Shown: positions 3,868 to 49,383, counted from the stretch's first letter. The stretch is 58,932 nt of DNA from an uncultured Clostridia bacterium (GCA_944386745.1 CALXCG010000002.1:1-58932), one strand, 5' to 3'. Notes: generated from the letters alone by a model not told the origin. A program made the numbers and translations.

Positions 3868-4560
3868 ATGATAATATATACATCGTATGATTATTTCAAA
3901 TTATATCCATATGTTATAAAACAACGAAATTATGGATTGAAGGATAATAGTCAAAGTTATAGCTTAGAAGTAAGTAGTGGTAAAAAAGAAAAACAATATC
4001 ATAAACATGACAAATTATTTAGAGAAATCTTAAATAGAAATAAAGAAATTGTTAAATTAATTAACAGATATGTAAAACCGAAAAAAGAATTAACTGAAGA
4101 AATGATAGAAAAGTATGATACAAAATTCATAACAACTATCTACGAAAAAAGAGAGGCTGATATAGTATATAAGCTGAAAGGAAAAGAAGTTTTCTTTCTA
4201 ATAGAACATCAAACAAAAGTTGATAAATTAATGTCATATAGAATATTAGAATATAGCTTAGAAATAATTAGGACTAGAATGAAAAATATTAAGGGAAAGA
4301 TAGAAAAGGTAGGAGTTCCAAAAGTAATTCCATTAGTAATTTACACAGGACAGGCAAGATGGACTGCAAAAAATAAATTAGAAGAAGTACAAGTAGAATT
4401 TGAGCATTTCAATGGTATAGATCCAGATTTTGAAAAAGCAAAAAAAGAGGGAAGAGAGAAAGGAATTATAGAAATAGCTAAAAAGATGTTAAATGAAAAA
4501 GTAGACATTGATTTTATTATAAAAATAACAGGATTAAAAAAAGAGCAAATTCTGAATTGA
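3868..4560 (+). CDS. Rpn family recombination-promoting nuclease / PD-(D/E)XK putative transposase
   Basis: HKHDKLFREIL ... FFLIEHQTKVDKLMSYRILEY signature of the YhgA/Rpn family. Confidence 0.7.
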   Translation: MIIYTSYDYFKLYPYVIKQRNYGLKDNSQSYSLEVSSGKKEKQYHKHDKLFREILNRNKEIVKLINRYVKPKKELTEEMIEKYDTKFITTIYEKREADIVYKLKGKEVFFLIEHQTKVDKLMSYRILEYSLEIIRTRMKNIKGKIEKVGVPKVIPLVIYTGQARWTAKNKLEEVQVEFEHFNGIDPDFEKAKKEGREKGIIEIAKKMLNEKVDIDFIIKITGLKKEQILN

Positions 4561-5309: not shown

Positions 5310-8300
5310 TTGAAAACAACAAAAATATTAAAAATAGATGGAACGTTATTAGACAAAGAGCAACTAAATAGGCATTTGCAAAAAATAGCATCAAGTCATA
5401 ACCTAAAAAACAAAAGTGACAAACAAACATATCCTGTACCAATCATGATAGAAAATTATAAAACAATAGAACAAGTATATGAACTATTAAATGAACATTT
5501 AAAACTAGGAATAAGCATACATCCAGCAGGAGAATGGTTACTAGATAACTTCTATATCATAGAACAAACAGTAAAACAAATAGAAAAAGAATTACCACTA
5601 AAAAAATACAAAAACTTTTTAGGGATTGCAAATGGAAAATATAAAGGATTTGCAAGAATCTATGTATTAGCAGCAGAAATAGTAGCATACACAGATAACA
5701 AAATAGAAAAAGAAGGATTAGAAGAAGCATTGCAAAGTTATCAAAGTAAAAAAACACTAAGCATGGAAGAAATTTGGAATATAGGGATATTTTTGCAAAT
5801 ATCAATAATAGAAAATATAAGAGAATTGTGTGAAAGAATATACAGTTCACAAATGCAAAAATTTAAAGCAGAAAATATAGTAGAAAGATTAATTGAAAAC
5901 AAAAACAAAACTAATATAGTGTGTAAAACAAGTGCATGCAAAAAGATGGAAAAAGATAGTTTTCAAGATATGAAATACCCATTTATAGAATACATGTCAT
6001 ATATATTAAAAAGATATGGAAAAAAGGGATATAGTTATTTAAAAGTTTTAGAAGAAGCAGTAGAAATGGCTGGAACAACAGTACAAGATGTGATTAAAAA
6101 AGAACATTTTGACATAGCTGTTAGAAAAGTTAGTATGGGAAATAGTATTACAAGTATAAAGAAAATTCAAAGAATTAATTTCCTAGAAATATTTGAAAAA
6201 ATAAATGGTGTTGAAGAAATTTTAAGACAAGACCCAAGTAACACATATATAAACATGGATAATAAAACAAAGGAATATTATAGAAATGCTATAAAAGAAA
6301 TATCTAAAAAAACCAAGATTTCAGAAATATATATAGCTAGAAAAACACTAGAATTAGCACAAAAACGTTTAGAAGAAATAGAAGGAGATAATAAAGAAAA
6401 CAAAAAATCACATATAGGATATTACTTAATAGATAAAGGAATTGATGAGCTATATACAGTATTAAAATATAAAGAAAAAAATTCAATAAGTCAAAAAGGA
6501 AAAACAAAAATATATATTTCAGCAATTTATATCACAACATTAATCATAGATATAATTATTTCAGGTATTATAAATTTCAAAACTAGCAATTTATGGATAT
6601 CAATATTAACATTTATTATATTTTTTATTCCAATATCAGAAGTAGCAACACAAATAATACAATATATATTAAGTAAAATAGTAAAACCAAAACTAATACC
6701 AAAACTTGATTTAACACAAGGTTTGTCAAAAGAAATGGCAACAATGGTAGTAATTCCAACAATAGTAAAATCAAAAGAAAAAGTGCAAGAACTAATGAGA
6801 AAACTAGAAGTATATTACTTAGCAAATAAAAGTAAAAACTTGTATTTTACTTTACTTGGAGATTGTTCAGAAAGTGATAAAAGAGAAGAAGATTTTGATG
6901 AAGAAGTAATACAAGAAGGTAAAAAATTAGTAAATGAATTAAATAAAAAATACAATGAGAAAATTTTTAACTTTATATATAGAAAACGTATTTGGAATGA
7001 AGGAGAAAATTCATATCTTGGTTGGGAAAGAAAAAGAGGTATGCTTTCACAATTAAATGAATATTTGTTAGGAAATATAAAGAATCCTTTTAGAGAAAAT
7101 ACATTAGAAAATTTAGATAATATGCCAAAAATAAAATATATTATTACTTTAGATGCAGATACTGATTTAATTCTAAATTCAGCATTTGAGTTAATAGGTG
7201 CAATGTCACATATACTAAATAAACCAGTAATAAATCCAACTACAAATACAGTTACAGAAGGATATGGGATACTTCAACCAAGAGTGGGTATTGATTTAGA
7301 TATAAGTTTTAAAACATTATTTACGAAAATATTTGCAGGAGCAGGAGGAATTGACTCATATAGTAACGCAATTTCAGACACATATCAGGATAATTTTAAT
7401 GAGGGGATTTTTACTGGAAAGGGAATTTATGACTTAGAGGTATATTCAAAAGTATTAAAGGGTGAAATTCCAGAAAATACAGTTTTAAGTCATGATTTGC
7501 TTGAGGGGAGTTATTTGAGATGTGGCTTAGCTTCTGATATTTTGCTTATGGATGGATATCCTACAAAATATAATAGTTTTATGACAAGGCTTGCTAGATG
7601 GATTCGTGGAGATTGGCAGATTACAAAATGGATTGGGAATAAGAAATTAAATTTGTTATCAAAATACAAAATTTTTGATAATTTAAGAAGAAGTTTACTA
7701 GAAATTAGTATTATTGTAACAATAATATATACAAGTATTTTGGGGATTATATATAACCAAAAGATTTATGGAATTGTTACATTTGTTTTACTGATTTCTA
7801 TATTGCCATACATTTTAGAATTTTTAAATAGATTGATATTTAAGAAAGAAGGAGAAGAAAAGCAAAAGACTTTTGCTCCAAAAATCACAGGTTTTAAAGG
7901 AACTTTTTTAAGAGCGGTTATAACTTTAGCAGTTTTACCATATAAAGCATATGTGTCAACAAAATCAATTACAAAAACAATATATAGAATGTGTATAAGT
8001 AAAAAGCATCTACTAGAATGGACAACTTCAGAAGAAGCAGAAAAACAGTCAAAATCAAGTTTGGTTTCATACTTTAATCAAATGGCATTTAATGTACTTG
8101 CAGGTGTGACAACAATTGGATTAGGATTTTTGAAACAAAATGGTTTTGCGTGTGTTTTAGGACTTTTATGGATGGTTGCTCCATGTATAATGTGGTATGT
8201 AAGTAGAACAATCGAAAAACATCCTGCAATAAAAAAATTAAATCAAAAAGATAAAGAGTATGTTTTAGAAATTGGTAAAAAGACTTGGAACTTTTTTGAG

Positions 8301-11300
8301 ACTTATTTGACAAAGGAAAATAATTATCTAATATCAGATAATTATCAAGAGGATAGAAAAGAAGAAATAGTACCTAGAACATCATCTACAAATATTGGGT
8401 TATCTCTTTTAGCAGTTATATCTGCTTATGATTTAAAATATATAACTTTTGAAAAAGCAATTAATTTATTAAAAAATATACTTGATAGCGTAGAGTCACT
8501 TCCAAAGTGGAATGGTCATTTATATAACTGGTATCAAATACAGACAAAAGAACCTCTAGTTCCTAGATATATTTCGACAGTTGATAGTGGTAATTTTGTT
8601 GGATATTTGTATGTAGTTAAATCTTTTTTAGAAGAACAAATAAAAAATACAAACAATGAAAACAAAGAAGAAATGGAGGTAAGCGAAAATAAAAATCAAA
8701 TTCTAAGTGAGTTAGTAGAAAAAGTAACCAAACTAATTAATGATACAGACTTTTCATATTTGTACAGCCAAGAGGAGCAAATCTTTTCAATTGGATTTAA
8801 TATCGAAGATAATAAATTAACAAATTCATATTATGATTTACTTGCATCTGAAGCAAGACAAGCAAGTCTAGTTGCAATAGCAAAAAAAGATGTACCTGCT
8901 AAACATTGGAGTTATTTAAGTAGGACTTTGACTAAATTAGGAAAATATAAAGGGTTGATTTCATGGGCTGGTACTGCGTTTGAGTATTTGATGCCTAATA
9001 TAAATATTCCAAGTTATGAAGGAAGTTTATTAGACGAGTCTTGTAAATTCATGATTAAAAGTCAGATGGAATATAGTAAACAATTAAATGTAGCATGGGG
9101 AATTTCAGAAGCAGCTTTTAACCTAAAAGATTTAAAATCAAATTATCAATATAAGGCATTTGGAATACCATGGCTTGGATTAAAAAGAGGTCTTGCAGAT
9201 GAAATGGTTGTATCTAGTTATGGTGGTATTTTGGCAATAAATGAAGTTCCAAAAGAGGAAGTGCAGAATTTAAAAAGATTAGAACAAGAAGGAATGTATG
9301 GAAAATTTGGATTTTATGAATCAATAGATTATACACCAGAAAGAGTAGAAAGAGGGAAGATATCAAGTGTAGTAAAAACATATATGGCGCATCATCAAGG
9401 ACTAATTTTGCTATCAATTAATAATTTATTTAATAACAATATTCTGCAAAAAAGATTTATGAGAAATCCTGAAATTGATGCAGTTAGTATTTTGTTACAA
9501 GAAACAATGCCAGAGACTTTTGTAACAACAAAAGAGAAAAAGGAAAAGGTAGAAAAGCTAGAATACAAAGATTATGAAGATTATATCCAAACAACATATC
9601 AAAAAATAGAAGAAAGATTGGATATTGGAAATGTAATCTCAAATGAAGATTATATCGTTGCAATGAACCAAAAAGGTCAAGGTGTAAGTAGATATAGGGG
9701 AATTGATATAAATAGATTTAAACCTACAAAAGATTATGCACAAGGAATATTTTTTGCAGTTAAGAGTGTAAAAAGTAAAACTTTAATAAGTTCAAATTAT
9801 GGCTTTAATGATGGACAATATCAAATAAGTTTTATGCCAGATAAAGATGAACAAGAAATAAAAAATAATAATTTGAAAGTGAAAATAAATACAACTGTAA
9901 GTTCTAATGAGCCAGTAGAAATTAGAAGATTAATAATAGAAAATCAGGGAAATGAAGATGATATAGTAGAAGTTACTTCATATTTTGAACCAGTATTATC
10001 AAAGAAAGAACAAGATTATGCACATCCAGTGTTTAATAATTTGTTTTTAACTACAAAATATGATGAAAAAACAAATAGTTTAGTAACAACAAGAAAAGTA
10101 AGGGAAAAGAATCAACCTAAAATTACTGTTGCAACAACTTTATCCACAAATAGTGAAACAATTGGGGATTTTGAGTATGAATTAGAAGCGGAAAAGTTTA
10201 CAGGTAGAGGGAATTTAGAAGTTCCAAACATGATTAAAAATTCAATACCTTTTTCTAAAAAAATAGGATTAGTTACAGAACCAATTATTGCAGAGAAGAG
10301 GACAATTAAGGTAAAAGCACAGGAAAAAGTGATTGTAGATTTTATTTTATCAGTAGGAGAAGATGAAAAACAAGTATTAAATCATTTAGAAAAATATAAA
10401 TCAGCAGAAAATGTGAAAAAAGAATTTGAATTATCAAAGGCAAGAGTAGAGGCTGAAAGTAGATATTTAAGAATAAAAGGAAACGAAATTGAAATTTATC
10501 AAAAAATGCTTTCATATATAATTTTTACAAATCCGCTAAGCAGTCAAAGAAAAGAAAAAACAAACCCTCAAATAGTGTTTAAGCAAAGTGATTTATGGAA
10601 GTATGGAATATCAGGTGATTTACCAATTATTCTTGTAAAAATGAGAAATGTAAACGACAAATATGTCATAAAAGAAGTGCTAAAAGCATATGAATTTTTT
10701 AGAACGAAAAATATTGAGGTTGAGATTGTAATATTAGATGAAGAAAAACATAGTTATGAGAACTATGTAAGAGAAGAAATTGAAGGTGCAATTTTAAATT
10801 CACATATGGCATATTTGAAAAGTCAAAAAGGTGGAATTTTTATATTAACAAAGGGAGAAATTGATAAAAAAGATATTCAATTATTAGATTTTATAGCAGA
10901 TATAGTTTTAAATAGTGATAAAGGTGGATTAAAAAATAATATAAAAGATATTGAAGAAAGATTTTTAGATAGTAGAAAAGAAATTGAAGAAGAAAGTCAA
11001 CTTCCACAAGTAATAGATGAAACAGAAGATATAGATTTATTGGAAAATAGGGAAGATTTGAAATACTATAATGAATATGGTGCTTTTTCTCCAGATGGAA
11101 AAGAATATATAATAAAAGTAAACAAAGATAATAGATTGCCAACAGTTTGGAGTCATATTATAGCAAATGAAAAGTTTGGAACAGTAATAACAGAAAATAT
11201 GGGGGGATATAGTTGGTATAAAAATAGTAGACTAAATAGAGTATCAACTTGGGAAAATAATCCAAATTATGATATTCCTTCAGAAGTTATTTATGTGAAA

Positions 11301-13535
11301 GATTTAGAGAATTCTAGAAAATGGTCTTTAGGTCTAAATCCAATGCCAGATAATAAAAACTATAATGTAGTTTATGGTTTTGGTTATGCAAAGTATATTC
11401 ATAAAAGTGATGGACTAGAGCAAGAGTTAGAAGTATTTGTGCCAAATGAAGATTCTTGTAAAATTCAAGTGTTGACTTTAAAAAATACAACGCCAAATAG
11501 AAAAAAATTAAAATTGTATTATTATATGAAACCAACTATTGGTGAAGATGACTTGAAAACAGAAGGATATATAGATTTACAATTTGATAAAAATAACAAT
11601 GTGCTATATGCAAGAAACAGATATGCGGAAGAATCATCATACATGATAAATTATGTATCGAGTAGCGAGAAAATAAATTCATATACAGGTGATAAAAAAT
11701 ATTTCTTAGGAAAGGGCGGACTAGATAATCCGCAAGGATTAAATAAAGTTAGCCTAAATAGGGAAAATTCTATTGGAAAGCAGGCATGTATTGCATATGA
11801 AATAGAAGTTGAATTAGAAAGTTATAGTGCAAAAGAAATTTCATTTGTTCTAGGTTCAGATGAAAAATTAATTGATTGTAAAAATACAGCATATAAATAT
11901 CAAAAAATTGCAAATTGTAAGCAGGAATTAACAGATGTAAAAAATCAATGGAAAGAAAGATTAAATAGGTTGCAAGTTTATACGCCATTAGAATCAACAA
12001 ATATATTATTAAATGGATGGCTTGTTTATCAAACAATTACAAGTAGATTGTTAGGCAGAAGTGGATATTATCAATCTGGAGGAGCTTATGGATTTAGAGA
12101 CCAGCTTCAAGATACTTTAGCTTTAAAATATATAAATCCAGAATTCTTGAAAAATCAAATAATCAAACACAGCAAACATCAATTTATAGAAGGAGATGTA
12201 GAACATTGGTGGCATGATGAAACAGGTAGAGGTATTAGAACAAGATTTTCAGATGATTTGCTATGGTTGCCATATTTAGTGTTAGAATATATCAAATTTA
12301 CAGGTGATGAGAGTATTTTAGAAATAGAAACACCATATATTGAAGGAAAAGAACTAGAAGAAAGTCAAGATGAAAGATATGATAAATATCCAGAGAGTAA
12401 AGAAAAAGGAACAATTTATGAGCATTGTATAAAAGCTATTGAAAGAAGTTTCAATTTTGGAGAAAATGGATTGCCTAAGATTGGCTCAGGTGATTGGAAT
12501 GATGGATTTAGTACAGTTGGAAATAAAGGTAAAGGCGAAAGTGTGTGGCTTGGATTTTTCTTATATACTATTTTAGATGGATTTATTGAGATCGTGAAAG
12601 AAAAAGAACCGGTAGAAAACGATAAAGAGAAAGTAGGAAAAATTGAAAACGATGAAAATGATATTGAAGAAGGTGCTGAAAAAATTGTTGAAAATAAAAC
12701 AGAAAAATACGAGAGAATAAAGAATGAATTAAAAAGAGCATTAAATACAAATGGATGGGACGGAAGATGGTATAAAAGGGCATTTATGGATGATGGAAAT
12801 GTACTAGGAAGTATGGAAAATGAAGAATGTAGAATAGATAGCATTGCACAAAGTTGGAGTATCATTTCAAATGCAGGAGATAATGACAAAAAATATATAT
12901 CAATGGAAAGTCTAGAAAATCATTTAGTAGATAAAGAAAATGGAATAATCAAGCTATTAGATCCACCATTTGAAAAAAGCAAATTAGAGCCTGGATATAT
13001 AAAATCATACTTGCCAGGAGTTAGAGAAAATGGAGGACAATATACTCACAGTTCATGTTGGGTAATAATAGCTGAAAGTATTTTAGGCTTTGGAGATAAG
13101 GCACTAGAGTGGTATAGAATGATAAATCCAATAGAACATTCAAGAACAAAAGATGCATGTAACAAATATAAAGTAGAGCCATATGTAATTCCAGCAGATA
13201 TATATGGAGCAAACAACTTAGCTGGAAGAGGTGGCTGGACTTGGTATACAGGCTCATCAAGTTGGTATTATAAAGCTGGAATAGAATATATATTGGGATT
13301 AAAAGTTGAAAATGGGTATTTATCAATATTGCCATGTATACCTAAAAATTGGAAAGAATACCAGATGCAATATAAGTGGCAAAATAGTATTTATAAAATA
13401 ACTGTTAAAAATCCTGATGGTAAAAATATTTTTGAAAGTGGTACTAGCAAAGTTACTTTAAATGGAAATGAGGTTGAAAATCACATCAAACTAGACGGAA
13501 GTAGAAATGAATATGAGATTGAAGTGAGGATTTAG
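5310..13535 (+). CDS. Cyclic beta-1,2-glucan synthase-like giant protein (GT84 glycosyltransferase + TM region + alpha/alpha-6 domain + GH94 phosphorylase domain), TTG start
   Basis: 2741 aa. LDADT glycosyltransferase region, multiple TM helices, and C-terminal GH94 motifs GYYQSGGAYGFRDQLQD and GSGDWNDG. RBS aaggag lies before the TTG. Confidence 0.85.
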   Translation: MKTTKILKIDGTLLDKEQLNRHLQKIASSHNLKNKSDKQTYPVPIMIENYKTIEQVYELLNEHLKLGISIHPAGEWLLDNFYIIEQTVKQIEKELPLKKYKNFLGIANGKYKGFARIYVLAAEIVAYTDNKIEKEGLEEALQSYQSKKTLSMEEIWNIGIFLQISIIENIRELCERIYSSQMQKFKAENIVERLIENKNKTNIVCKTSACKKMEKDSFQDMKYPFIEYMSYILKRYGKKGYSYLKVLEEAVEMAGTTVQDVIKKEHFDIAVRKVSMGNSITSIKKIQRINFLEIFEKINGVEEILRQDPSNTYINMDNKTKEYYRNAIKEISKKTKISEIYIARKTLELAQKRLEEIEGDNKENKKSHIGYYLIDKGIDELYTVLKYKEKNSISQKGKTKIYISAIYITTLIIDIIISGIINFKTSNLWISILTFIIFFIPISEVATQIIQYILSKIVKPKLIPKLDLTQGLSKEMATMVVIPTIVKSKEKVQELMRKLEVYYLANKSKNLYFTLLGDCSESDKREEDFDEEVIQEGKKLVNELNKKYNEKIFNFIYRKRIWNEGENSYLGWERKRGMLSQLNEYLLGNIKNPFRENTLENLDNMPKIKYIITLDADTDLILNSAFELIGAMSHILNKPVINPTTNTVTEGYGILQPRVGIDLDISFKTLFTKIFAGAGGIDSYSNAISDTYQDNFNEGIFTGKGIYDLEVYSKVLKGEIPENTVLSHDLLEGSYLRCGLASDILLMDGYPTKYNSFMTRLARWIRGDWQITKWIGNKKLNLLSKYKIFDNLRRSLLEISIIVTIIYTSILGIIYNQKIYGIVTFVLLISILPYILEFLNRLIFKKEGEEKQKTFAPKITGFKGTFLRAVITLAVLPYKAYVSTKSITKTIYRMCISKKHLLEWTTSEEAEKQSKSSLVSYFNQMAFNVLAGVTTIGLGFLKQNGFACVLGLLWMVAPCIMWYVSRTIEKHPAIKKLNQKDKEYVLEIGKKTWNFFETYLTKENNYLISDNYQEDRKEEIVPRTSSTNIGLSLLAVISAYDLKYITFEKAINLLKNILDSVESLPKWNGHLYNWYQIQTKEPLVPRYISTVDSGNFVGYLYVVKSFLEEQIKNTNNENKEEMEVSENKNQILSELVEKVTKLINDTDFSYLYSQEEQIFSIGFNIEDNKLTNSYYDLLASEARQASLVAIAKKDVPAKHWSYLSRTLTKLGKYKGLISWAGTAFEYLMPNINIPSYEGSLLDESCKFMIKSQMEYSKQLNVAWGISEAAFNLKDLKSNYQYKAFGIPWLGLKRGLADEMVVSSYGGILAINEVPKEEVQNLKRLEQEGMYGKFGFYESIDYTPERVERGKISSVVKTYMAHHQGLILLSINNLFNNNILQKRFMRNPEIDAVSILLQETMPETFVTTKEKKEKVEKLEYKDYEDYIQTTYQKIEERLDIGNVISNEDYIVAMNQKGQGVSRYRGIDINRFKPTKDYAQGIFFAVKSVKSKTLISSNYGFNDGQYQISFMPDKDEQEIKNNNLKVKINTTVSSNEPVEIRRLIIENQGNEDDIVEVTSYFEPVLSKKEQDYAHPVFNNLFLTTKYDEKTNSLVTTRKVREKNQPKITVATTLSTNSETIGDFEYELEAEKFTGRGNLEVPNMIKNSIPFSKKIGLVTEPIIAEKRTIKVKAQEKVIVDFILSVGEDEKQVLNHLEKYKSAENVKKEFELSKARVEAESRYLRIKGNEIEIYQKMLSYIIFTNPLSSQRKEKTNPQIVFKQSDLWKYGISGDLPIILVKMRNVNDKYVIKEVLKAYEFFRTKNIEVEIVILDEEKHSYENYVREEIEGAILNSHMAYLKSQKGGIFILTKGEIDKKDIQLLDFIADIVLNSDKGGLKNNIKDIEERFLDSRKEIEEESQLPQVIDETEDIDLLENREDLKYYNEYGAFSPDGKEYIIKVNKDNRLPTVWSHIIANEKFGTVITENMGGYSWYKNSRLNRVSTWENNPNYDIPSEVIYVKDLENSRKWSLGLNPMPDNKNYNVVYGFGYAKYIHKSDGLEQELEVFVPNEDSCKIQVLTLKNTTPNRKKLKLYYYMKPTIGEDDLKTEGYIDLQFDKNNNVLYARNRYAEESSYMINYVSSSEKINSYTGDKKYFLGKGGLDNPQGLNKVSLNRENSIGKQACIAYEIEVELESYSAKEISFVLGSDEKLIDCKNTAYKYQKIANCKQELTDVKNQWKERLNRLQVYTPLESTNILLNGWLVYQTITSRLLGRSGYYQSGGAYGFRDQLQDTLALKYINPEFLKNQIIKHSKHQFIEGDVEHWWHDETGRGIRTRFSDDLLWLPYLVLEYIKFTGDESILEIETPYIEGKELEESQDERYDKYPESKEKGTIYEHCIKAIERSFNFGENGLPKIGSGDWNDGFSTVGNKGKGESVWLGFFLYTILDGFIEIVKEKEPVENDKEKVGKIENDENDIEEGAEKIVENKTEKYERIKNELKRALNTNGWDGRWYKRAFMDDGNVLGSMENEECRIDSIAQSWSIISNAGDNDKKYISMESLENHLVDKENGIIKLLDPPFEKSKLEPGYIKSYLPGVRENGGQYTHSSCWVIIAESILGFGDKALEWYRMINPIEHSRTKDACNKYKVEPYVIPADIYGANNLAGRGGWTWYTGSSSWYYKAGIEYILGLKVENGYLSILPCIPKNWKEYQMQYKWQNSIYKITVKNPDGKNIFESGTSKVTLNGNEVENHIKLDGSRNEYEIEVRI

Positions 13536-13589
13536 GGATTTAGGGGACGGTCCTAAAAATCCCCGCTTTTAGGGATTTTGGGACGGACC
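13534..13589 (+). repeat. GGGATTT-AGGGGACGG hairpin repeat, double unit (copy R1)
   Basis: agggatttaggggacggtcctaaaaatccccgcttttagggattttgggacggacc. It overlaps the TAG stop of the glucan synthase gene. Confidence 0.9.
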
Positions 13590-13608
13590 TTTTATCCTTT
13601 TATACTTT

Positions 13609-13792
13609 AATGATAATATTTTAATAATTTATTTCATTTCTCGGCTAACATTACATCTTGAATTCATTCTAAAATTATCATGTAGGCACCTCGAAACCGC
13701 AAGTTTGAGATTCTCCTACCTGATAATTCAAGAATGTATAACAAGATTTCATTCGCATTCGAAATTTCAAAAATTATTAAGATATTATCATT
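13609..13792. ncRNA. Rod-shaped conserved intergenic element, copy A (candidate structured ncRNA or BIME/MITE module)
   Basis: Closing stem 13609-13630/13771-13792. Conserved blocks GGCTAACATTACA (13643-13655), TAGGCACCTC..GCAAGTTTGAGATTCTCCTA (13683-13718) and ATTTCATTCGCATTCGAAA (13746-13764). The second copy is at 35829-36000. Confidence 0.5.
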
Positions 13793-13814
13793 CTATAATT
13801 AAATCATGATTAGA

Positions 13815-13870
13815 GGTCCGTCCCTTATTCCCTGTTTTTAGGGATTTTTAGGACCGTCCCCTAAATCCCT
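13815..13870 (-). repeat. GGGATTT-AGGGGACGG hairpin repeat, double unit, inverted (copy R2)
   Basis: The reverse complement matches R1. It overlaps the TAG stop of the minus-strand deacetylase gene. Confidence 0.9.
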
Positions 13871-14678
13871 ATTCGTAAAAATTTTTAAATGTATATCCTT
13901 GTTCCTTTAGGTAATCTATAGAATCTTTTAAAACTAAATCTGTTTGATTAACATCAGAAGTATCATGCATTAAAATAACTAAAGTACCTTTATTTTTAGT
14001 AGATTGTTTTAAGTTATTTAATAACTCTTGATTACTGTATTTTTTCTCAGAGTCTTTATTTAAGCAATTCCAATCAATATATGTATAATCAATATTAGAA
14101 AGAAGAGTAACATATTCTTCTTTCTTTGATTTATAAACAGATGACATATATCCATTAGGAAAGCGAAATACATGAGAACAGTAATTATCAATTCCAATTG
14201 CTTTACTAATTTCTTTATCAGTAGATGTGATTTCATTTATAAAAGCATCTGCATTTGAATATAATTTGCTATTATTATGACTGTAACCATGATTTGCAAT
14301 ATAATGTCCTTCTTCATATGCTCGTTTTACTAATTCAGGATGTTCTTTTACATGTTTTCCAATAACAAAAAAACTAGCTTTAACATTTTCTTCATTTAAT
14401 ATATCAAGGATTTTACTTGTAGATTTTAAAGTAGGACCATCATCAAAAGTTAAATATGCAATTTTCTCTTTTTGATTAGTTAGATTTTGTATTTTGCTAT
14501 AAAAATTTTCTAGTTCATTGATACTGGTTTGAATAGATTTACTGCTATTATTCATATTAGAATTTTTATCTACTGAATTGTTATTAAAATTTAATAAAAG
14601 GAAGATTATAGCGAATACTGTAATAAAGAAGATTAAAGTGATAATAATATTTTTTCTTTTTATAATAATAAATTTCAT
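13869..14678 (-). CDS. Polysaccharide deacetylase (NodB homology domain) with N-terminal membrane anchor
   Basis: LTFDDGP, NHGYSHN and LMHD motifs. Confidence 0.85.
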   Translation of the reverse strand: MKFIIIKRKNIIITLIFFITVFAIIFLLLNFNNNSVDKNSNMNNSSKSIQTSINELENFYSKIQNLTNQKEKIAYLTFDDGPTLKSTSKILDILNEENVKASFFVIGKHVKEHPELVKRAYEEGHYIANHGYSHNNSKLYSNADAFINEITSTDKEISKAIGIDNYCSHVFRFPNGYMSSVYKSKKEEYVTLLSNIDYTYIDWNCLNKDSEKKYSNQELLNNLKQSTKNKGTLVILMHDTSDVNQTDLVLKDSIDYLKEQGYTFKNFYE

Positions 14679-18392: not shown

Positions 18393-19628
18393 ATGAGTTA
18401 TATAAATGAAAATTTTTTAAATATGCAAGATAGCTACTTATTTTCAACAATAGCAAAAAAAGTAGCAAAATACACAGAAGAAAATCCAGACAAAAAAATC
18501 ATAAAATTAGGAATAGGAGATGTTACAAAGCCAATAGTACCAGCATGTATAGAGGCAATGCATAAAGCGGTAGATGAAATTGGAACACAAGAAGGATTTA
18601 AAGGATATGGACCAGAACAAGGATATGAATTTTTAAGAAATGCAATAGTTCAAAATGATTATAAAGCAAGAGGAATAGATATCAAAGCAGATGAAATCTT
18701 TGTATCAGATGGTGCAAAATGTGATTGTGGAAATATAGTAGATATATTTGCTGAGGATAATAAAGTTGCAATTACAGATCCAGTATATCCAGTATATTTA
18801 GACACAAATGTAATGTCAGGAAGAAGTGGAAAATATAACAAAGAAAAAGACATGTATGAAAATATAGTATATTTACCAGTAACAGCTGAAAATAATTTCA
18901 AGCCAGAATTACCAAAAGAAAAGGTAGATATGATATATCTATGTTTCCCAAATAATCCAACTGGAACAGTATTAACAAAAGAAGATTTGAAAGTTTGGGT
19001 AGACTATGCTAAAGAAAATAATAGTATTATTCTATATGATGCAGCATATGAAGCATTTATAACAGAAGAAGATATACCACATAGTATCTATGAAGTAGAA
19101 GGGGCAAAAGATGTTGCAATAGAATTTAAGAGCTTTTCAAAAACAGCAGGCTTTACAGGTGTTAGATGTGCATATGTAGTAATTCCACACACAGTAAAAG
19201 GATACACAAAGGCTGGAGAAGAAATTGAATTAAATAAATTATGGAATAGAAGAACTTGTACAAAATTTAATGGAGTATCATATGTTGTACAAAGAGCTGC
19301 AGAAGCTACATATTCAGAAGAAGGTAAGAAACAAATTAGAGCTAATATTGAAAGCTACTTAGAAAATGCAAAAATAATAAAAAATGGATTAGAGGATGCA
19401 GGATTTACAACATATGGAGGTGTTAATTCACCATATATTTGGTTACAAGTACCTAAAGGCATGACTTCATGGGAGTTCTTTGATAAATTACTAGAAGAAG
19501 TAAATGTTGTTGGAACTCCAGGAAGTGGATTTGGACCACATGGTGAAGGCTATTTTAGATTAACTGCTTTTGGTACTAAAGAAAATTCAATAGAAGCAAT
19601 TGAAAGAATAAAGAATTGGAGGGATTAG
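18393..19628 (+). CDS. dapL: LL-diaminopimelate aminotransferase
   Basis: [30 protein letters not shown] and [16 protein letters not shown] at 18393 follows aaaggag. Confidence 0.85.
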
Positions 19629-19674
19629 GGGGACGGTCCTCTAAATCCCGTTTTTTAGGGATTTAGGGACGGAC
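19620..19674 (+). repeat. GGGATTT-AGGGGACGG hairpin repeat, double unit (copy R3)
   Basis: agggattagggggacggtcctctaaatcccgttttttagggatttagggacggac. It encodes the last two codons (RD) and the TAG stop of dapL. Confidence 0.9.
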
Positions 19675-19841
19675 ATAAAAATCCAAGTTTTCATTGATTA
19701 GATAACGAACTTGAAAATCACTGCTTTTAGATATTTAGGCTTACTCTTAAAACGATAAATTAAAAGATTTCGTAATAAATTACGAAGTCTTTTATAATGG
19801 AAAAAACAAGAAAATATTAAAAACAAATTTTCGCTAAAAGG

Positions 19842-34936: not shown

Positions 34937-35839
34937 ATGTTAGTTAAAGTGAAAAAGTTTATTGTAGAAAAGGAAGAAGAAAATAAAAGAATTGATAGTT
35001 ATTTATCTGAAAAAAATGAAGATTTATCAAGAGTTGCAATACAAAGATTAATTTCAGAAGAAAAGGTTAAAGTAAATGATAAAAAAGTTAAACCATCATA
35101 TAAAGTGCAAGAAAATGATGAAATTACATTGGAAGAAGAACAACCAAAGGAGATTTCATTAAAAGCACAAAATATTCCATTAGAAATAATTTATGAAGAT
35201 AATGATATCATAGTGGTAAATAAACCTAAAGGAATGGTAGTGCATCCAGCAAATGGAAATCCGGATGGTACACTTGTAAATGCTGTTATGGCTATTTGTA
35301 AAGATTCTTTATCTGGAATAGGTGGAGAAATAAGACCAGGGATAGTTCATAGACTTGATAAAGATACATCTGGAATTATAGTTGTGGCTAAAAATGATAA
35401 GGCTCATATTAATTTAAGTGAACAGATAAAAAATCATGAAGTTAAAAAAACATATATTGCAATTGTAAGAGGAGTTGTGAAAGAAAACCAAGCAACAATA
35501 AATATGCCAATTGGAAGAAGTGAGAAAGATAGAAAGAAGATGGCTGTTACCAAAAAAGGTAAAGAGGCAATAACTCATTTTAAGGTATTAAAGAGATTTG
35601 AAGATTATACAGTATTAGAGGTGAATATAGAAACAGGAAGAACACATCAAATAAGAGTGCATTTAGCTCAAATTGGATATCCAATTATAGGAGATAGTAC
35701 ATATTCAAGTGGCAAGAATAAATGGGGAATAAAAGGACAGGCTTTGCATGCCAAAAGTCTTGAATTTAGACATCCTATTACAGGTGAGAAAATGAAGTTA
35801 GAAGCGGAACTACCAGAATATATGAGACGATTAATTTAA
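34937..35839 (+). CDS. rluD: 23S rRNA pseudouridine synthase RluD family
   Basis: S4 domain, HRLDKDTSGIIVVAKN and GRTHQIRVH. The start is ambiguous (34937 ATG or 34949 GTG). Confidence 0.85.
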   Translation: MLVKVKKFIVEKEEENKRIDSYLSEKNEDLSRVAIQRLISEEKVKVNDKKVKPSYKVQENDEITLEEEQPKEISLKAQNIPLEIIYEDNDIIVVNKPKGMVVHPANGNPDGTLVNAVMAICKDSLSGIGGEIRPGIVHRLDKDTSGIIVVAKNDKAHINLSEQIKNHEVKKTYIAIVRGVVKENQATINMPIGRSEKDRKKMAVTKKGKEAITHFKVLKRFEDYTVLEVNIETGRTHQIRVHLAQIGYPIIGDSTYSSGKNKWGIKGQALHAKSLEFRHPITGEKMKLEAELPEYMRRLI

Positions 35840-36000
35840 TAATTTATATCGTTTCTTGGCTAACATTACATTATAGATAAATTCTAAACTTATAAAATAG
35901 GCACCTCTCAAAGCAAGTTTGAGATTCTCCTATTTTATAAGTAAAGAATTTTTACTATAATTTCATTCGCATTCGAAACTCATAAATTATTAAATTAATC
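35829..36000. ncRNA. Rod-shaped conserved intergenic element, copy B
   Basis: Closing stem 35829-35847/35982-36000. The same three conserved blocks as copy A (35858-35870, 35898-35932, 35960-35978). Stems have different sequence but preserved pairing. Confidence 0.5.
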
Positions 36001-37712: not shown

Positions 37713-38648
37713 ATGGTTGAAGATAACCAAATTAAAGCGCAAGTATCACCTTTTGCAATAAGAGAAGGAGAAATTAAAACATTTGATGGAAAAGACGGAT
37801 ATGTTTCAATGAATCAAATTGTACATAAAATTAACATTGGGCATATAAATGAAATTCATTTTGCAATCTTAGAATTAGTAAATGAATTTGAATTTATTAC
37901 TTCAAGACAATTATATCAAATGTTAGAGATTAAAGGAATTGATCCTAAATCACAAGACAAATTAAATAATAAATTGGACCAATTAGTAAAATCAAAGATA
38001 TTGACAAGATATTATTTTACATCTGATGAAGGAAAGGGAATTTATCGTATATATTGCTTAGAGAAGATGGGAAAATATTTATTAAATTCAAAGGAAATTG
38101 AATGTAAATGGCAACCATCAGATAATACAAAACCAGTTCCAATGATTAAGAAAAGATTAGCTGGAAATCAAACAATTATTGCATATTTAAGAAAGGTAAA
38201 GGCATTTGATAGTTATACTGTAAAACCAGCAATAACTGCAAAATCTGCAGGTAAATTATTTAAAGCAACAGGTGGAGCTGTTAAATTAACTAAAAACGGA
38301 AAATCAATACAATTTGTTTTTGAAGTAGTAAGAAGAGAACAAGATTGGCAAAAGAAATTAGTTGAGAAAATGAGATTATATAAAGATTTCTATGAAAACT
38401 TTGTACCAGGAGATTCTGGATTTAGTGGTATGCCACAATTAATACTAATTTGTGAAGATGAAAAACATATGGCAGAATGTTTTAAAGAAATAGTAAAAAA
38501 TCAAGTAGAAATACCACAAATTAAGTTATATTTTTCAACAGATTTAAGACAAAATGAAGAAACTTTGGAAAATACTTTAGTCGATTTTAAATTAGTTGAT
38601 GGAAAATATAAGATGGAAAATGTAGAATTAAAATTATTAGGAATGTAG
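37713..38648 (+). CDS. Hypothetical protein, possible winged-helix (replication-relaxation-like) N-terminus
   Basis: IHFAILELVNEFEFITSRQLYQML resembles the replication-relaxation family wHTH; weak. Confidence 0.3.
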   Translation: MVEDNQIKAQVSPFAIREGEIKTFDGKDGYVSMNQIVHKINIGHINEIHFAILELVNEFEFITSRQLYQMLEIKGIDPKSQDKLNNKLDQLVKSKILTRYYFTSDEGKGIYRIYCLEKMGKYLLNSKEIECKWQPSDNTKPVPMIKKRLAGNQTIIAYLRKVKAFDSYTVKPAITAKSAGKLFKATGGAVKLTKNGKSIQFVFEVVRREQDWQKKLVEKMRLYKDFYENFVPGDSGFSGMPQLILICEDEKHMAECFKEIVKNQVEIPQIKLYFSTDLRQNEETLENTLVDFKLVDGKYKMENVELKLLGM

Positions 38649-38653
38649 GAGAA

Positions 38654-38707
38654 AGGGATTTAGGGGACGGACCTAAAATCCCTCTTTTTAGGGATTTGGG
38701 GACGGAC
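38654..38707 (+). repeat. GGGATTT-AGGGGACGG hairpin repeat, double unit (copy R4)
   Basis: agggatttaggggacggacctaaaatccctctttttagggatttggggacggac followed by ttttaatttt. Confidence 0.9.
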
Positions 38708-38868
38708 TTTTAATTTTGATTTAAGGATAAAATTTAATTTAACTTTAGAATAGACTACTGATTAAACTTGAAATTCTGAAAGTTTTGTATTATAATAGTG
38801 GACATAAATTGGTTGAAGTGTTTGAGTAAAAATCAATTTATAAATATGAATAAGTAGGAGGAGTAAAA

Positions 38869-40131: not shown

Positions 40132-40151
40132 GGACCGTCCCCCTAATCCCT
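40132..40151 (-). repeat. Single GGGATT-AGGGGGACGGTCC unit (copy R5) between pflB and pflA
   Basis: The reverse complement agggattagggggacggtcc is identical to the first unit of R3. Confidence 0.85.
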
Positions 40152-43955: not shown

Positions 43956-44963
43956 GTGAAGTTTATTTTAAAAAATAGATTAAAATACTATACGAAAGAA
44001 GTTATGAAGTATTTTAACATTGCTATTATAGCTTTTGGTTTTATAATCGCGATTGTACTAATAAAATATAGACCAGTCTATAAAGTAAGCATATCTGGTG
44101 AAGAATTAGGATATATAGAAAATATACAATCATTTGAAGAGAATTTGAAAAATGAAATTATTAGTGAAGAAACAAAAAATGTTGACAGTATAAATTTATC
44201 TGAAGAACCAGAATATGAGTTAAAACTTATTAATAGAACACTTGAGACAAACGAAAAAGAAATTGCAACTGAAATCGAAGATGAAGTAGTTGTAACATAT
44301 AAATATTATGATGTAGCATATAAAAATGAAACAATACAATCTGTTAACACAATTGAAGAAGCAGAAGAAATTGTAAATGAAATAAAAGAAAATAATAATG
44401 AACAAGATGTAGATTTGACAATTATAGAAAAATATACTGAAAATGAAGAAGAAGTTAATACTTCTGAATTAGAAGTAGCTAAAACTGAAACTCAGACAAT
44501 AGTTGCTGAAAAAATTGAGGAAGAACAAAAGCAAAAAGAGGAAGAGGAAAGAATAAATAGCCTTCCAGATATTAATGGAATAAAATTGGCCGTAACACCA
44601 ATTGAAGGAACAATTACATCACGTTATGGTGCAAATAGTAGAATTAGAAAATCAACACATACAGGTTTAGATATTGCGGCAACGAAAGGAACTCCAATTA
44701 AGGTTGTTGCAGCAGGTACTGTAATATCTGCAAGTTATGATGGCTCATATGGTAATTTAGTAAAAGTGGACCATGGAAATGGTGTTGAAACTTGGTATGC
44801 TCATACAAGTAAAATGTATGTAAAAGTTGGTGAACAAGTTGAAGCGGGAGATGTGATTGCAGCAGTTGGTTCTACTGGAAATTCAACAGGACCTCATTTA
44901 CATTTAGAAATTAGAGTTAATGGAGAACATGTAAACCCACAAAATTATTTATATAATAACTAA
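43956..44963 (+). CDS. M23 family metallopeptidase (LytM domain) with N-terminal TM
   Basis: HTGLDIAATKGTPIKVVAAGTV and GNSTGPHLHLEIRVNG; start uncertain. Confidence 0.85.
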   Translation: MKFILKNRLKYYTKEVMKYFNIAIIAFGFIIAIVLIKYRPVYKVSISGEELGYIENIQSFEENLKNEIISEETKNVDSINLSEEPEYELKLINRTLETNEKEIATEIEDEVVVTYKYYDVAYKNETIQSVNTIEEAEEIVNEIKENNNEQDVDLTIIEKYTENEEEVNTSELEVAKTETQTIVAEKIEEEQKQKEEEERINSLPDINGIKLAVTPIEGTITSRYGANSRIRKSTHTGLDIAATKGTPIKVVAAGTVISASYDGSYGNLVKVDHGNGVETWYAHTSKMYVKVGEQVEAGDVIAAVGSTGNSTGPHLHLEIRVNGEHVNPQNYLYNN

Positions 44964-45041
44964 AGTCGAATTATAAAATTTTATTTATGAAGTGGCTAAC
45001 ATTGCAGAATAAAAAATGTCGAGAAAATAGAACGATTTTTC

Positions 45042-45069
45042 TTGACATTTTTTAGTAATAATATATAAT
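45042..45069 (+). promoter_or_regulatory. Candidate sigma-A promoter of adhE
   Basis: TTGACA, 16-nt spacer, TATAAT. The -35 is embedded in the 3' arm of a hairpin (45012-45052). Confidence 0.5.
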
Positions 45070-45104: not shown

Positions 45105-47717
45105 ATGGCAGAAGTAAGCGCACAAGAAGAACAAAAAGTTCAAAAAATGATAAATGAACTTGTAGAAAAAGCAAAAATAGCATCACAGGAGTACATGAAA
45201 TTAGACCAAGAAGCAGTAGATAAAATAACAAAAGCAATGTCAATGGCAGGGCTAGAACATCATATGGAACTTGCAAAATTAGCAGTAGAAGAAACAAAAA
45301 GAGGAATATATGAAGATAAAATAACAAAGAACATGTTTGCAACAGAATATGTATATCATAGCATTAAATATGAAAAAACAGTAGGTATAATTAGTGAAAA
45401 TGAAGAAGAAGGATATGTAGAAATAGCAGAACCAGTAGGAATAATTGCAGGAGTTACGCCTGTTACAAATCCAACTTCTACAACAATGTTTAAATCAATA
45501 ATAGCAGCAAAAACAAGAAATGTAATAATATTTGGATTTCATCCATCTGCACAAAAATCAAGTAGTGCTGCAGCAAAAATTTTAAGAGATGCAGCAATTA
45601 AAGCAGGAGCTCCAGAAAATTGTATATTATGGATTGAAGAGCCATCAATAACTGCAACAAGAATGTTAATGAATCATCCTGATGTAAACTTAATACTTGC
45701 AACAGGTGGAACAGGAATGGTTAGGTCAGCATATTCTTGTGGAAAACCAGCATTAGGAGTAGGACCTGGAAATGTACCTTGCTATATTGATAAAACAGCA
45801 AAATTAAAAACATCAGTAAATGATTTAGTAATGTCTAAAGCATTTGATAATGGAATGATATGTGCATCAGAACAAGCAGTATTAGTTGATAGAGAGATTT
45901 ACGAAGAATTTGAAAAATTAATGAGAGAAGCAGGATGCTATTTTGTAAATCCAGAAGAAAAGAAAAAATTACAAGATAGCATGTTTGATTATACAGAAGA
46001 ATATGGGTATAAATTAAAATCACATGTTCCAGGACAATCACCATATACAATTGCAAAAGAGGCAGGATTTGAGATACCAGAAGACACAAAAGTAATAGTT
46101 GTATATGAGGAAGGAATCGGAAGAGAATATCCATTTTCAAAAGAAAAATTAAGCCCAGTTTTAACATATTATATAGTTGAAAACGAAGATGAAGGAATAA
46201 AAAAATCAGAACAATTGATTGAATTTGGTGGATTAGGGCATTCAGCAGTTATTCATTCTGAAAATAGGGATACAATATTAAGATTTTCAGAAACTATGAA
46301 AGCAGGAAGAATAATTGTAAATTCTCCATCTACTCATGGAGCAATTGGTGATATATATAACACAAATATGCCATCATTAACACTTGGATGTGGTTCATTT
46401 GGTGGAAATTCAACAACGGCTAATGTATCATCAGTAAATTTAATTAATATAAAAAGAGTAGCGAAAAGGAGAGTTAATATGCAATGGTTTAAAATTCCAG
46501 AAAAAATATATTTTGAAGCAGGTTCAATTCAATACTTAGAAAAAATGCCAGATATAACAAGAGCATTTATTGTAACAGATGAAGGAATGGTAAAATTAGG
46601 ATATGTAGATAAAATTCTATATCATTTAAGAAAAAGACAACAATATGTACATTCAGAAATATTTAGTGAAGTAGAATCAGATCCATCATTTGATACAATC
46701 AAAAAAGGTGTAGAGCTAATTAAAAACTTTAATCCTGATGTAATAATTGCATTAGGAGGAGGAAGTCCAATAGATGCTGCAAAAGGCATGTGGCTATTTT
46801 ATGAACATCCTGAAGCAGATGCTGAAGGTTTAAAATTGAAATTTATGGATATTAGGAAAAGAACATATAAATTTCCTAAGTTAGGAACAAAATGTAAAAT
46901 GGTAGCAATACCAACAACATCAGGAACAGGTTCAGAAGTAACATCATTTGCGGTAATTACTGATAAAGAGAAAAATAAAAAATATCCATTAGCAGATTAT
47001 GAGCTAACACCAGATGTTGCAATAGTAGATCCAGATTTAGTAATGAGTTTGCCAAAATCAGTTACAGCAGATACAGGAATGGATGTTTTAACACATGCAA
47101 TTGAGGCATATGTATCAAATATGGCATCAGATTACACAGATGGATTAGCAGAAAAGGCAGTAGAACTTGTATTTGAAAATTTACAAGAAGCATATGAACA
47201 TGGAGATAATAAACTAGCAAGAGAAAAGATGCATAATGCAAGTACAATAGCAGGAATGGCATTTACAAATGCATTTTTAGGAATTAACCATTCATTAGCA
47301 CATAAAATAGGTGGAGAGTTCCATTTACCACATGGAAGAATAAATGCAATTTTATTACCATATGTAATAAGATACAATAGTTCAAAACCAAGTAAATTTG
47401 TATCATTTCCTAAATATGAATATTTCATAGCAAATCAAAAATATTATAGATTAGCTAAAAAGGCAGGATTAAAAGCAGATACAGTAGAAGAGGGAATCAA
47501 TAGTTTAATTGAAAAAATCATAGAAATGAACAAAAAATTAAATATTCCAAGCACATTTAAAGAAGCTGGAATAGATGAACAGGAATTTTTAGCAAAAGTA
47601 GATATGTTAGCTGATAGAGCGTTTGAAGACCAATGTACAACAGCAAATCCACGCGTGCCTCTAGTAACAGAGTTAAAACAAATATTACTAGATTCATACT
47701 ATGGAAAAAGGGATTAG
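45105..47717 (+). CDS. adhE: Bifunctional acetaldehyde-CoA / alcohol dehydrogenase
   Basis: 870 aa. N-terminal aldehyde dehydrogenase domain (CASEQ active site) and C-terminal iron-ADH domain ([10 protein letters not shown]). Confidence 0.95.
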
Positions 47718-47763
47718 GGGACGGTCCTAAAAATCCCTGCTTTTAGGGATTTAGGGACAGACC
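47709..47763 (+). repeat. GGGATTT-AGGGGACGG hairpin repeat, double unit (copy R6)
   Basis: agggattaggggacggtcctaaaaatccctgcttttagggatttagggacagacc. It encodes the final RD and the TAG stop of adhE. Confidence 0.9.
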
Positions 47764-49327: not shown

Positions 49328-49383
49328 GGTCCGTCCCTAAATCCCTAAAAGCAGGGATTTTTAGGACCGTCCCCAAAATCCCT
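49328..49383 (-). repeat. GGGATTT-AGGGGACGG hairpin repeat, double unit, inverted (copy R7)
   Basis: The reverse complement matches R6. It ends 5 nt from the asnS stop codon. Confidence 0.9.

Follow-up and report, generated by a model that had tools for sequence, protein, structure and literature searches.

The window examined here, a stretch of 58,932 nt from an uncultured Clostridia bacterium, contains two copies of a long imperfect palindrome, hereafter called the rod. We believe, with moderate confidence, that rods are non-autonomous mobile DNA, or DNA derived from a mobile element, and not free-standing RNA genes. Rods lodge in the tip of a pre-existing palindrome or terminator-type hairpin, a few bases past a stop codon, and the two arms of that older hairpin, now separated, form the distal, locus-specific end of the rod stem. 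A preliminary description had nominated the first copy as a novel structured RNA gene resembling 6S RNA. That claim was abandoned, since rods have no Rfam match, are multi-copy, have empty orthologous sites and deletion variants, covary without G-U pairs, and lack a conserved promoter or terminator. The alternative offered with it, a DNA element of the BIME or MITE type, is favored by the multiple copies, the empty sites and the decayed copies, though not in the form of a plain MITE, as there is no consistent target-site duplication, the copies are not near-identical and the termini are less conserved than the unpaired interior. The analysis thereby disposes of a false 6S/ncRNA candidate and delineates a repeat family for which neither Rfam nor the literature searched offered a counterpart.

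The rod-shaped hairpin of about 180 nt proposed at 13609-13792 was borne out; the sequence reads as claimed and folds far below its shuffles. Copy A (13609..13792, +) is a palindrome of 184 bp that matches the family profile with an nhmmer E-value of 2.9e-42. On the + strand its fold reaches -51.4 kcal/mol (z -9.4), and on the - strand -57.4 kcal/mol (z -8.1). Copy B (35829..36000, +), 172 bp long, gave -53.0 kcal/mol (z -10.8) and -61.5 kcal/mol (z -11.3), respectively. The z-scores were obtained from dinucleotide shuffles, and 0/200 shuffles matched copy A. Both copies form a single long rod on either strand.

The outer stem of copy A pairs 13609..13632 with 13769..13792 (both +) over 24 bp, including one T.G and one A.A mismatch. 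The proximal part of its 5' arm, TAATAATTTAT, is common to copy B and L023, and the distal 13 nt are locus-specific. L-numbers are the labels of related loci that were compared with the window. The outer stem is followed inward by the P2 helix (ATTTC, 13636-13640, with GAAAT, 13761-13765) and by a bubble whose 5' strand is TCGGCTAACATTAC (13641..13654, +) and whose 3' strand is TTCATTCGCATTC (13748..13760, +), the latter with two tandem CATTCG units. Copies A and B carry the TCGGCTAACATTAC block unchanged, as do 28 loci retrieved with a scan pattern that demanded it; in metagenome relatives, where the pattern did not demand the bubble, the block is only loosely conserved. Inner stems (13655-13682 with 13719-13747) lead to the apical region (13683..13718, +), which has TAGG/CCTA closing pairs, a 4x4 loop of CACC/TTCT, and a mini-hairpin with a mutated 5' arm. 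In copy B the bubble strands lie at 35856..35869 and 35962..35974, and the apical region, which matches the family consensus, at 35898..35932 (all +).

The second copy had been said to keep the bubble and loop blocks identical while the stems differ. Pairwise alignment of copies A and B upheld this for the bubble, whose 14x13 nt are identical, and for the stems, which have diverged yet are still complementary. It did not hold for the loop blocks, which are not fully identical because the mini-hairpin of copy A is mutated. The arm at 13691-13699 reads TCGAAACCG in copy A and TCTCAAAG in copy B and in every orthologue and paralogue of copy A, the orthologues L015 and L021 included. The apical consensus TAGGCACCTCTCAAAGCAAGTTTGAGATTCTCCTA is nearly invariant in loci whose retrieval did not demand the apex. 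The deviations of copy A from it are broken pairs, and TCGAAACCG represents clustered changes within this otherwise nearly invariant block.

Each of the blocks GGCTAACATTACAT, TTTCATTCGCATTCGAAA and GCAAGTTTGAGATTCTCCTA has exactly two occurrences in the window, both with like orientation, where 0.02-0.6 are expected by chance. No third full copy was found in the window by nhmmer with the family profile. A weakly matching, possible decayed remnant of the 5' part, comprising an outer arm plus GGCTAACATTGCAG, lies at 44975..45020 (+; E 0.29; profile positions 12-57), directly after an ORF that ends at 44963, and matches the bubble block with two mismatches. A perfect match to the sigma-70 consensus (TTGACA-16 nt-TATAAT) is located at 45042-45069, downstream of a hairpin and upstream of an 870-aa ORF that starts at 45105.

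Related rods were sought with the pattern GGCTAACATTAC-N78-108-TTCATTCGCATTC in one genome per species. The exact two-block scan generated 28 loci in about 10 MAGs classified as uncultured Clostridia, Clostridium sp. or Bacillota, with six copies in BRZ_GT bin15 alone. The 28 loci can be sorted by common flanks into about a dozen groups; individual insertions have thus been kept in related species. A scan of metagenomes, which used the apical-loop pattern only, generated 13 stretches, one of them from a human-gut assembly. Twelve (12/13) are family copies, mostly more diverged, and L035 was rejected as a chance match. The metagenome copies keep the apex and have a loose bubble, with GGC..CATT.CA or CTGTCAAGCTA on the 5' side and TTYCATT.GCA on the 3' side. 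In total there are about 20 distinct rod loci across roughly 10 MAGs plus gut metagenomes, and the host clade is uncultured gut Clostridia that are AT-rich (26-28% G+C). BLASTN of copy A against plasmids and phages gave no match, and pattern scans of IMG/VR gave only three chance matches inside unrelated sequence. Literature searches with the conserved rod sequence blocks and with keywords for Clostridium MITEs returned nothing relevant. The family appears to be undescribed.

Rods are 172-188 bp in total length and share one architecture. From the ends inward it consists of an outer stem (19-32 bp, mostly perfect), a short P2 helix, an asymmetric bubble, two inner helices with small conserved internal loops, and the apex TAGG-CACC-TCTCAAA-GCAAG-TTTGAGA-TTCT-CCTA. 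Copies resemble one another in the proximal ~11-15 nt of this stem (TAATAATTTAT or TATAAAATTTAT), whereas its distal 8-20 nt are locus-specific. The termini of the rods are less conserved than the unpaired interior.

Pairing statistics were computed for 36 distinct sequences and 32 pairs (1152 cells). Paired cells amounted to 96.4%, as compared with 79.4% in shuffles and 32-49% with slid partners. Both sides had changed in 20/32 pairs (156 cells), and 2/1152 cells were G-U. Counted as independent events over whole rods, the mismatches comprised 5 G.T, 6 A.C and at least 12 transversion mismatches, with no overall strand preference. A first count had given 9-10 A.C events and 0 G.T on the + strand of the inner stems, and 4 G.T against 1 A.C in the outer stems. 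Assigning a strand from wobble pairs was given up because the outer stems reverse the inner-stem trend and the stricter count is 5 versus 6. Complementarity that is strictly Watson-Crick and strand-symmetric is the signature of a DNA palindrome and not of an RNA helix. The pairing of the rods thus points to a palindrome at the DNA level.

The same features were weighed for a family of trans-acting small RNAs, either 6S-like or another protein-sequestering rod, with its own promoter and possibly encoded on the minus strand. A rod with a 14x13 bubble recalls the overall 6S outline, and the unpaired blocks are kept across copies. Both copies fold more stably on the minus strand, where the internal loops would be purine-rich and the inner-stem A.C mismatches would become G.U pairs (9-10 events to 0). 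The outer stems, however, show the reverse wobble bias, and the stricter whole-rod count has G.T and A.C at 5 and 6. The check proposed together with the 6S claim, a search of both copies against RF00013 and all other Rfam families, went against it, with 6S absent even at E<=10. Rfam 15 had zero matches in the 59-kb window at the gathering threshold, and at E<=10 both copies drew only chance matches to miRNA and snoRNA families, with RsmY/rimP on the neighboring GC-rich repeat. Among 17 related loci, RF00013 identified a full-length, genuine 6S RNA at L010 223-415 (-) with 86.5 bits (gathering threshold 46.4), 2.8 kb from the rod of the same locus, and no Rfam family matched any rod. As the model scores a true 6S RNA at 86.5 bits in this clade, it is sensitive there, and the rods must be of a different nature. 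Around copies A and B, sites resembling promoters or terminators were at chance level and not common to both copies; a conserved promoter or terminator is missing.

A 6S RNA gene would be expected in one or two stable copies in all relatives, with G-U pairs included in its covariation, and its product would be an abundant RNA of ~180-200 nt that binds RNA polymerase and serves as the template for pRNA. Rods have six exact-pattern copies in one MAG and orthologous sites that are empty or partly deleted, and 156 double-changed cells go with 2 G-U cells in 1152. An arm of copy B also overlaps coding sequence. We consider a trans-acting RNA very unlikely.

Mobility is indicated by sites that differ between relatives. 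At three loci the orthologous site in relatives has no rod. Copy B lies between rluD and rluB, two pseudouridine-synthase genes, where the spacer is 233 nt in the window and 18, 0 and 38 nt in L045, L047 and L052, respectively, all three of them without the rod. RluD ends in ...EYMRRLI* in the window and in ...EYMKKLINGD* in relatives; the ending has changed, and the 5' arm of copy B now supplies the last three codons and the stop. In L049 a different palindromic insert of 121 nt (GGGGGACAGGTTAAAAACATTTC ... GAAATGTTTTTAACCTGTCCTCC; 3907-4027) is located exactly at the rluD-rluB junction occupied by copy B. Palindromic elements appear to have a hot spot at this junction. The copy A site in L058 has a 63-nt spacer only, with one AT-rich hairpin of the bidirectional-terminator type. 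In L025, an intact GC-rich hairpin with a 30-bp stem (CAGGGATTCAGGGACGGTCCTAAAAATCCC-loop-GGGATTTTTAGGACCGTCCCCTAATCCCTG) follows a histidine-kinase gene, and in L011 the two outer arms of that hairpin flank a rod plus spacers of 13-17 nt. Between L025 and L011 the hairpin has had its inner ~30 nt replaced, so this pair does not show a clean insertion, which counts against the mobile-DNA reading.

Rods also decay and are carried within larger units. L053, the copy A orthologue in BRZ_GV, has lost 94 bp, comprising the apex and inner stems, between two TTCATTC direct repeats. The 3' half of a rod copy is found at L008 5549-5600 and apparently arose by deletion between GAATTTAT repeats. Four loci whose flanks are unrelated (L008, L016, L018 and L024), two in each of two MAGs, carry a composite palindrome of ~440 bp that has a rod at its apex. 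Similarity between these loci stops at the ends of the composite, which extends about 150 nt to each side of the rod. The composite has GC-rich arms starting with AGGGGACGTTCC, followed by GGGACGGACC and GGGGACGCGTCC modules. In a fifth composite copy, at L008 5450-5720, half of the rod is deleted.

Some rods are inverted relative to their surroundings. When the rods of L001 and L002 are co-oriented, their flanks align on opposite strands (91.5% over 1640 bp) and the 191-bp element aligns directly (95%). In L032/L044 as compared with L034 the element is inverted relative to flanks that are 81% identical, the element itself being 88% identical. Both inverted loci are on the 5' side of a gene, encoding a 778-aa ATPase-like protein and a 365-aa membrane protein. 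Such flips are what would be seen if the rod were an inverton, with outer inverted repeats serving as recombination sites and a flipped asymmetric core altering expression of the neighboring gene. The core in both orientations, the 5' location of both flipped loci and the perfect inverted repeats of 19-32 bp would suit this explanation. However, the two orientations come from different genomes with flanks of just 81-91% identity and thus do not represent phase variation within a single strain. The inverted-repeat sequences vary by locus, unlike the sites of a shared invertase, no conserved promoter lies within the element, most copies are at gene 3' ends, and no invertase is found in the window near copy A or B. 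General recombination can flip the spacer of any long inverted repeat. A dedicated invertible switch is quite unlikely in our estimation.

The mobile-DNA reading has its own difficulties. No transposase, recombinase or reverse transcriptase adjoins any rod in about 450 kb of loci, nor was a parent IS with rod ends encoding a transposase found there. All-against-all BLASTP of the ORFs in all loci gave only orthologues and no recurrent neighbor protein, and the mobilizer is one that we purely infer. No consistent target-site duplication flanks the palindromes, although copy B has a palindromic ATTAAT that might be taken for one, and the rod termini are less conserved than the interior, unlike those of classical MITEs. 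An excess of A.C over G.T in the inner stems on the + strand would fit a minus-strand RNA. A gene for a YhgA-like putative transposase or Rpn-type nuclease (Pfam Transposase_31, E 2.8e-19) is located at 3868-4560 (+), 9 kb from copy A. It was considered as the mobilizer and dropped, having no homologue near any other rod.

Rods occupy a characteristic position with respect to genes. In most ortholog groups the rod starts 0-75 nt past a co-oriented stop codon. Where the neighboring genes run the same way, rods are co-oriented with them in 11 groups and opposite in 2 (binomial two-sided p about 0.02). GC skew tracks the coding strand, and the directions of replication and transcription are inseparable by skew. 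Some rods span a whole convergent gap. Those of L010/L012/L019 leave gaps of 7 and 4 nt, and the L042 rod overlaps the dapB stop codon and ends 5 nt from the rplS stop codon. Rods that occupy the entire gap after stop codons are necessarily transcribed as a long 3'-end hairpin.

The neighbors are ordinary housekeeping genes. Upstream of copy A, 5310-13535 (+) encodes a 2741-aa protein with GH94 and glucoamylase domains (2708-2714 aa in relatives), of the type seen in cyclic beta-1,2-glucan synthase and cellobionic-acid phosphorylase. A 311-aa protein with a weak Replic_Relax (replication-relaxation) domain is encoded at 37713-38648 (+). This gene is syntenic in relatives that have no rod, and is therefore unlinked to the rod.

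Orthologous rods diverge slowly. Divergence was 1.7% in the apex, 2.0% in the inner stems and 7.6% in the outer stems, as compared with 11.5% and 22% in the adjacent 100-nt flanks; the loci were selected by the exact bubble pattern, which biases them to conserved copies, and the apex and stems lie outside that pattern. Flanking coding DNA in tight ortholog groups diverged by 4-10%, and the inner rod is no higher. Some constraint must act on the inner rod, given that it diverges far less than the flanks, though single copies are lost or mutated. Selfish DNA fixed at a site should not diverge so slowly, and this counts against the mobile-DNA reading; slow divergence points to a function at the host level, possibly as RNA.

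The main rival is a domesticated cis-acting RNA, in which the rod is a hairpin in the 3' untranslated region that serves as a terminator, an exonuclease barrier or a protein platform and is kept by the host whatever its origin. The location of most copies just past a co-oriented stop, the orientation bias of 11 to 2, the conserved unpaired blocks, and an inner rod about 2% divergent beside flanks at 11-22% all argue for it. So do the copies that fill the whole convergent gap (L010/L012/L019; L042), where no other terminator can exist. Against it, G-U cells are nearly absent and the mismatches have no overall strand bias. Copy A lies past another repeat hairpin and not directly after the stop codon, the rod is dispensable at three loci and the apex is lost in L053. 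Two ortholog groups run against their neighboring genes, two differ in orientation between relatives, and no U-tract rule holds past the 3' arm. We hold this explanation to be possible, if well short of probable; the role may coexist with a mobile origin.

Copy A is not the only repeat at its locus. It had been described as nested between two inverted hairpin repeats. The repeats exist, but they are not an inverted pair; each is one copy of a separate GC-rich repeat that follows stop codons, and they look inverted because the neighbor genes of copy A converge. The left copy belongs to the upstream GH94 gene (13533..13592, +) and is not part of the rod, and the right copy belongs to the convergent deacetylase gene (13813..13871, -). 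The repeat has the structure AGGGATTTAGGGGACGGTCC-TAAAAATCCCTGCTTTT-AGGGATTTAGGGACGGACC. Other window sites are ~19620-19675 (+), ~38655-38708 (+), 40132-40141 (-), ~47710-47763 (+) and 49328-49373 (-), and all seven start right at a stop codon or no more than a few bases from one, in every case with the orientation of the gene. In some relatives (L051) the repeat overlaps the stop codon itself. The window contains 13 GGGACGGWCC motifs against 0.08 expected. Rods are often inside or beside this repeat (L011, L023 and the L008 type), and a related hairpin is found just after copy B. The GC-rich repeat may be a REP-like element or a terminator module. Together, the rods and the GC-rich 3'-end repeat will break assemblies and yield spurious ncRNA predictions in this clade.

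Returning to the mobile-DNA reading, a rod could be the substrate, as a folded single strand or a cruciform, of an enzyme whose gene lies elsewhere. Such an enzyme would read the hairpin shape, the conserved unpaired bubble and the apical loop, and not the terminal sequences. This would explain both the strictly Watson-Crick co-variation of the stems and the fixed unpaired blocks. The rods that occupy the entire gap after a stop codon probably now act as a terminator or 3' barrier of the upstream genes, a role that could account for the orientation bias and the slow divergence. A more specific version seems rather improbable to us. It holds that rods are substrates of an undescribed structure-specific recombination or transposition system of Clostridia, in which the folded hairpin is recognized by its unpaired bubble and apical loop much as attC sites are, though outside integrons, or else a guide-type RNA module on an IS110-like recombinase. 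It further holds that they are pasted into hairpin apexes, and that conservation among orthologues reflects a second, host role at gene 3' ends. A bridge-RNA reading of the rods was rejected, as bridge RNAs have variable loops on fixed stems, the reverse of the rod pattern, and no recombinase adjoins the rods. The rods are unusual among bacterial palindromic repeats in that the unpaired bubble and loop are conserved and not the ends. They are unusual as well in sitting at the tips of hairpins past genes, in flipping between related genomes, and in changing more slowly than their surroundings.

Known systems resemble the rods in different respects. 6S RNA (PMC10578484, PMC8414754) is likewise a rod of about 180 nt that has a closing stem and a large bubble at its center, but the rods fail RF00013, are multi-copy and dispensable, covary by Watson-Crick pairs only and have no promoter. 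Like ERIC, Correia/CREE, RUP, BOX and REP/BIME elements (PMC3184786), the rods are small, non-coding, multi-copy and intergenic, often just past genes. They also share with bacterial palindromic repeats and MITEs the long transcript hairpin, presence or absence between relatives, and frequent nesting in other repeats (PMC3184786). Short, non-coding, multi-copy and variably present, they are MITE-like in these four respects. In classical MITEs, however, the terminal inverted repeats are retained and insertion produces a target-site duplication (PMC3184786), whereas rods have an outer stem that is similar between copies in its proximal part and varies by locus in its distal part, no consistent duplication, and a bubble and apical loop that are best conserved. 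Their copy number is on the order of 10, as compared with hundreds for palindromic repeats and MITEs.

REP/RAYT (PMC3333891) provides a parallel for recognition of folded DNA by an enzyme encoded elsewhere. The rods were not assigned to REP/BIME elements with a RAYT, which are 20-40 nt long, GC-rich, present in hundreds and moved by a Y1 transposase, since rods are 172-188 bp, AT-rich and present in roughly 10 copies; the GGGACGG repeat of the window is nearer that type than the rods are. Ends of the IS200/IS605 type were considered in view of TTAC and TCAA tetranucleotides and rejected, as such ends are two separate direct hairpins and not one rod. IS insertion into REP hairpins (PMC1525189) shows the same mid-palindrome insertion with split arms on either side, and the ssr9 small-RNA module on the ISPpu9 (IS110-family) transposase (PMC12288879) is likewise a small non-coding module that spreads though it lacks an enzyme of its own. 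The rods differ in having no IS110-type or other transposase at the loci examined, and, unlike IS-in-REP, they target plain AT-rich palindromes as well as the GC-rich repeat.

Integron attC sites (PMC5027507, PMC7439510), like rods, are imperfect palindromes at the 3' side of genes with a fixed orientation, and are read through a folded single strand and a handful of unpaired features, with little constraint on the sequence of the stem. Rods have no R''/R' pair, no cassette array and no integrase nearby. The GGCTAAC of the rod resembles RYYYAAC, but it occurs once per rod, unpaired in the bubble, and GTTAGCC is absent; membership in attC was rejected because GGCTAAC has no paired partner. The unpaired blocks of rods are conserved in sequence and the apex is fixed, whereas attC sites have a variable terminal structure. 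If an enzyme does read folded rod DNA, the rods would be a second natural case of structure-specific recognition besides integron attC, and would be of interest for genome engineering.
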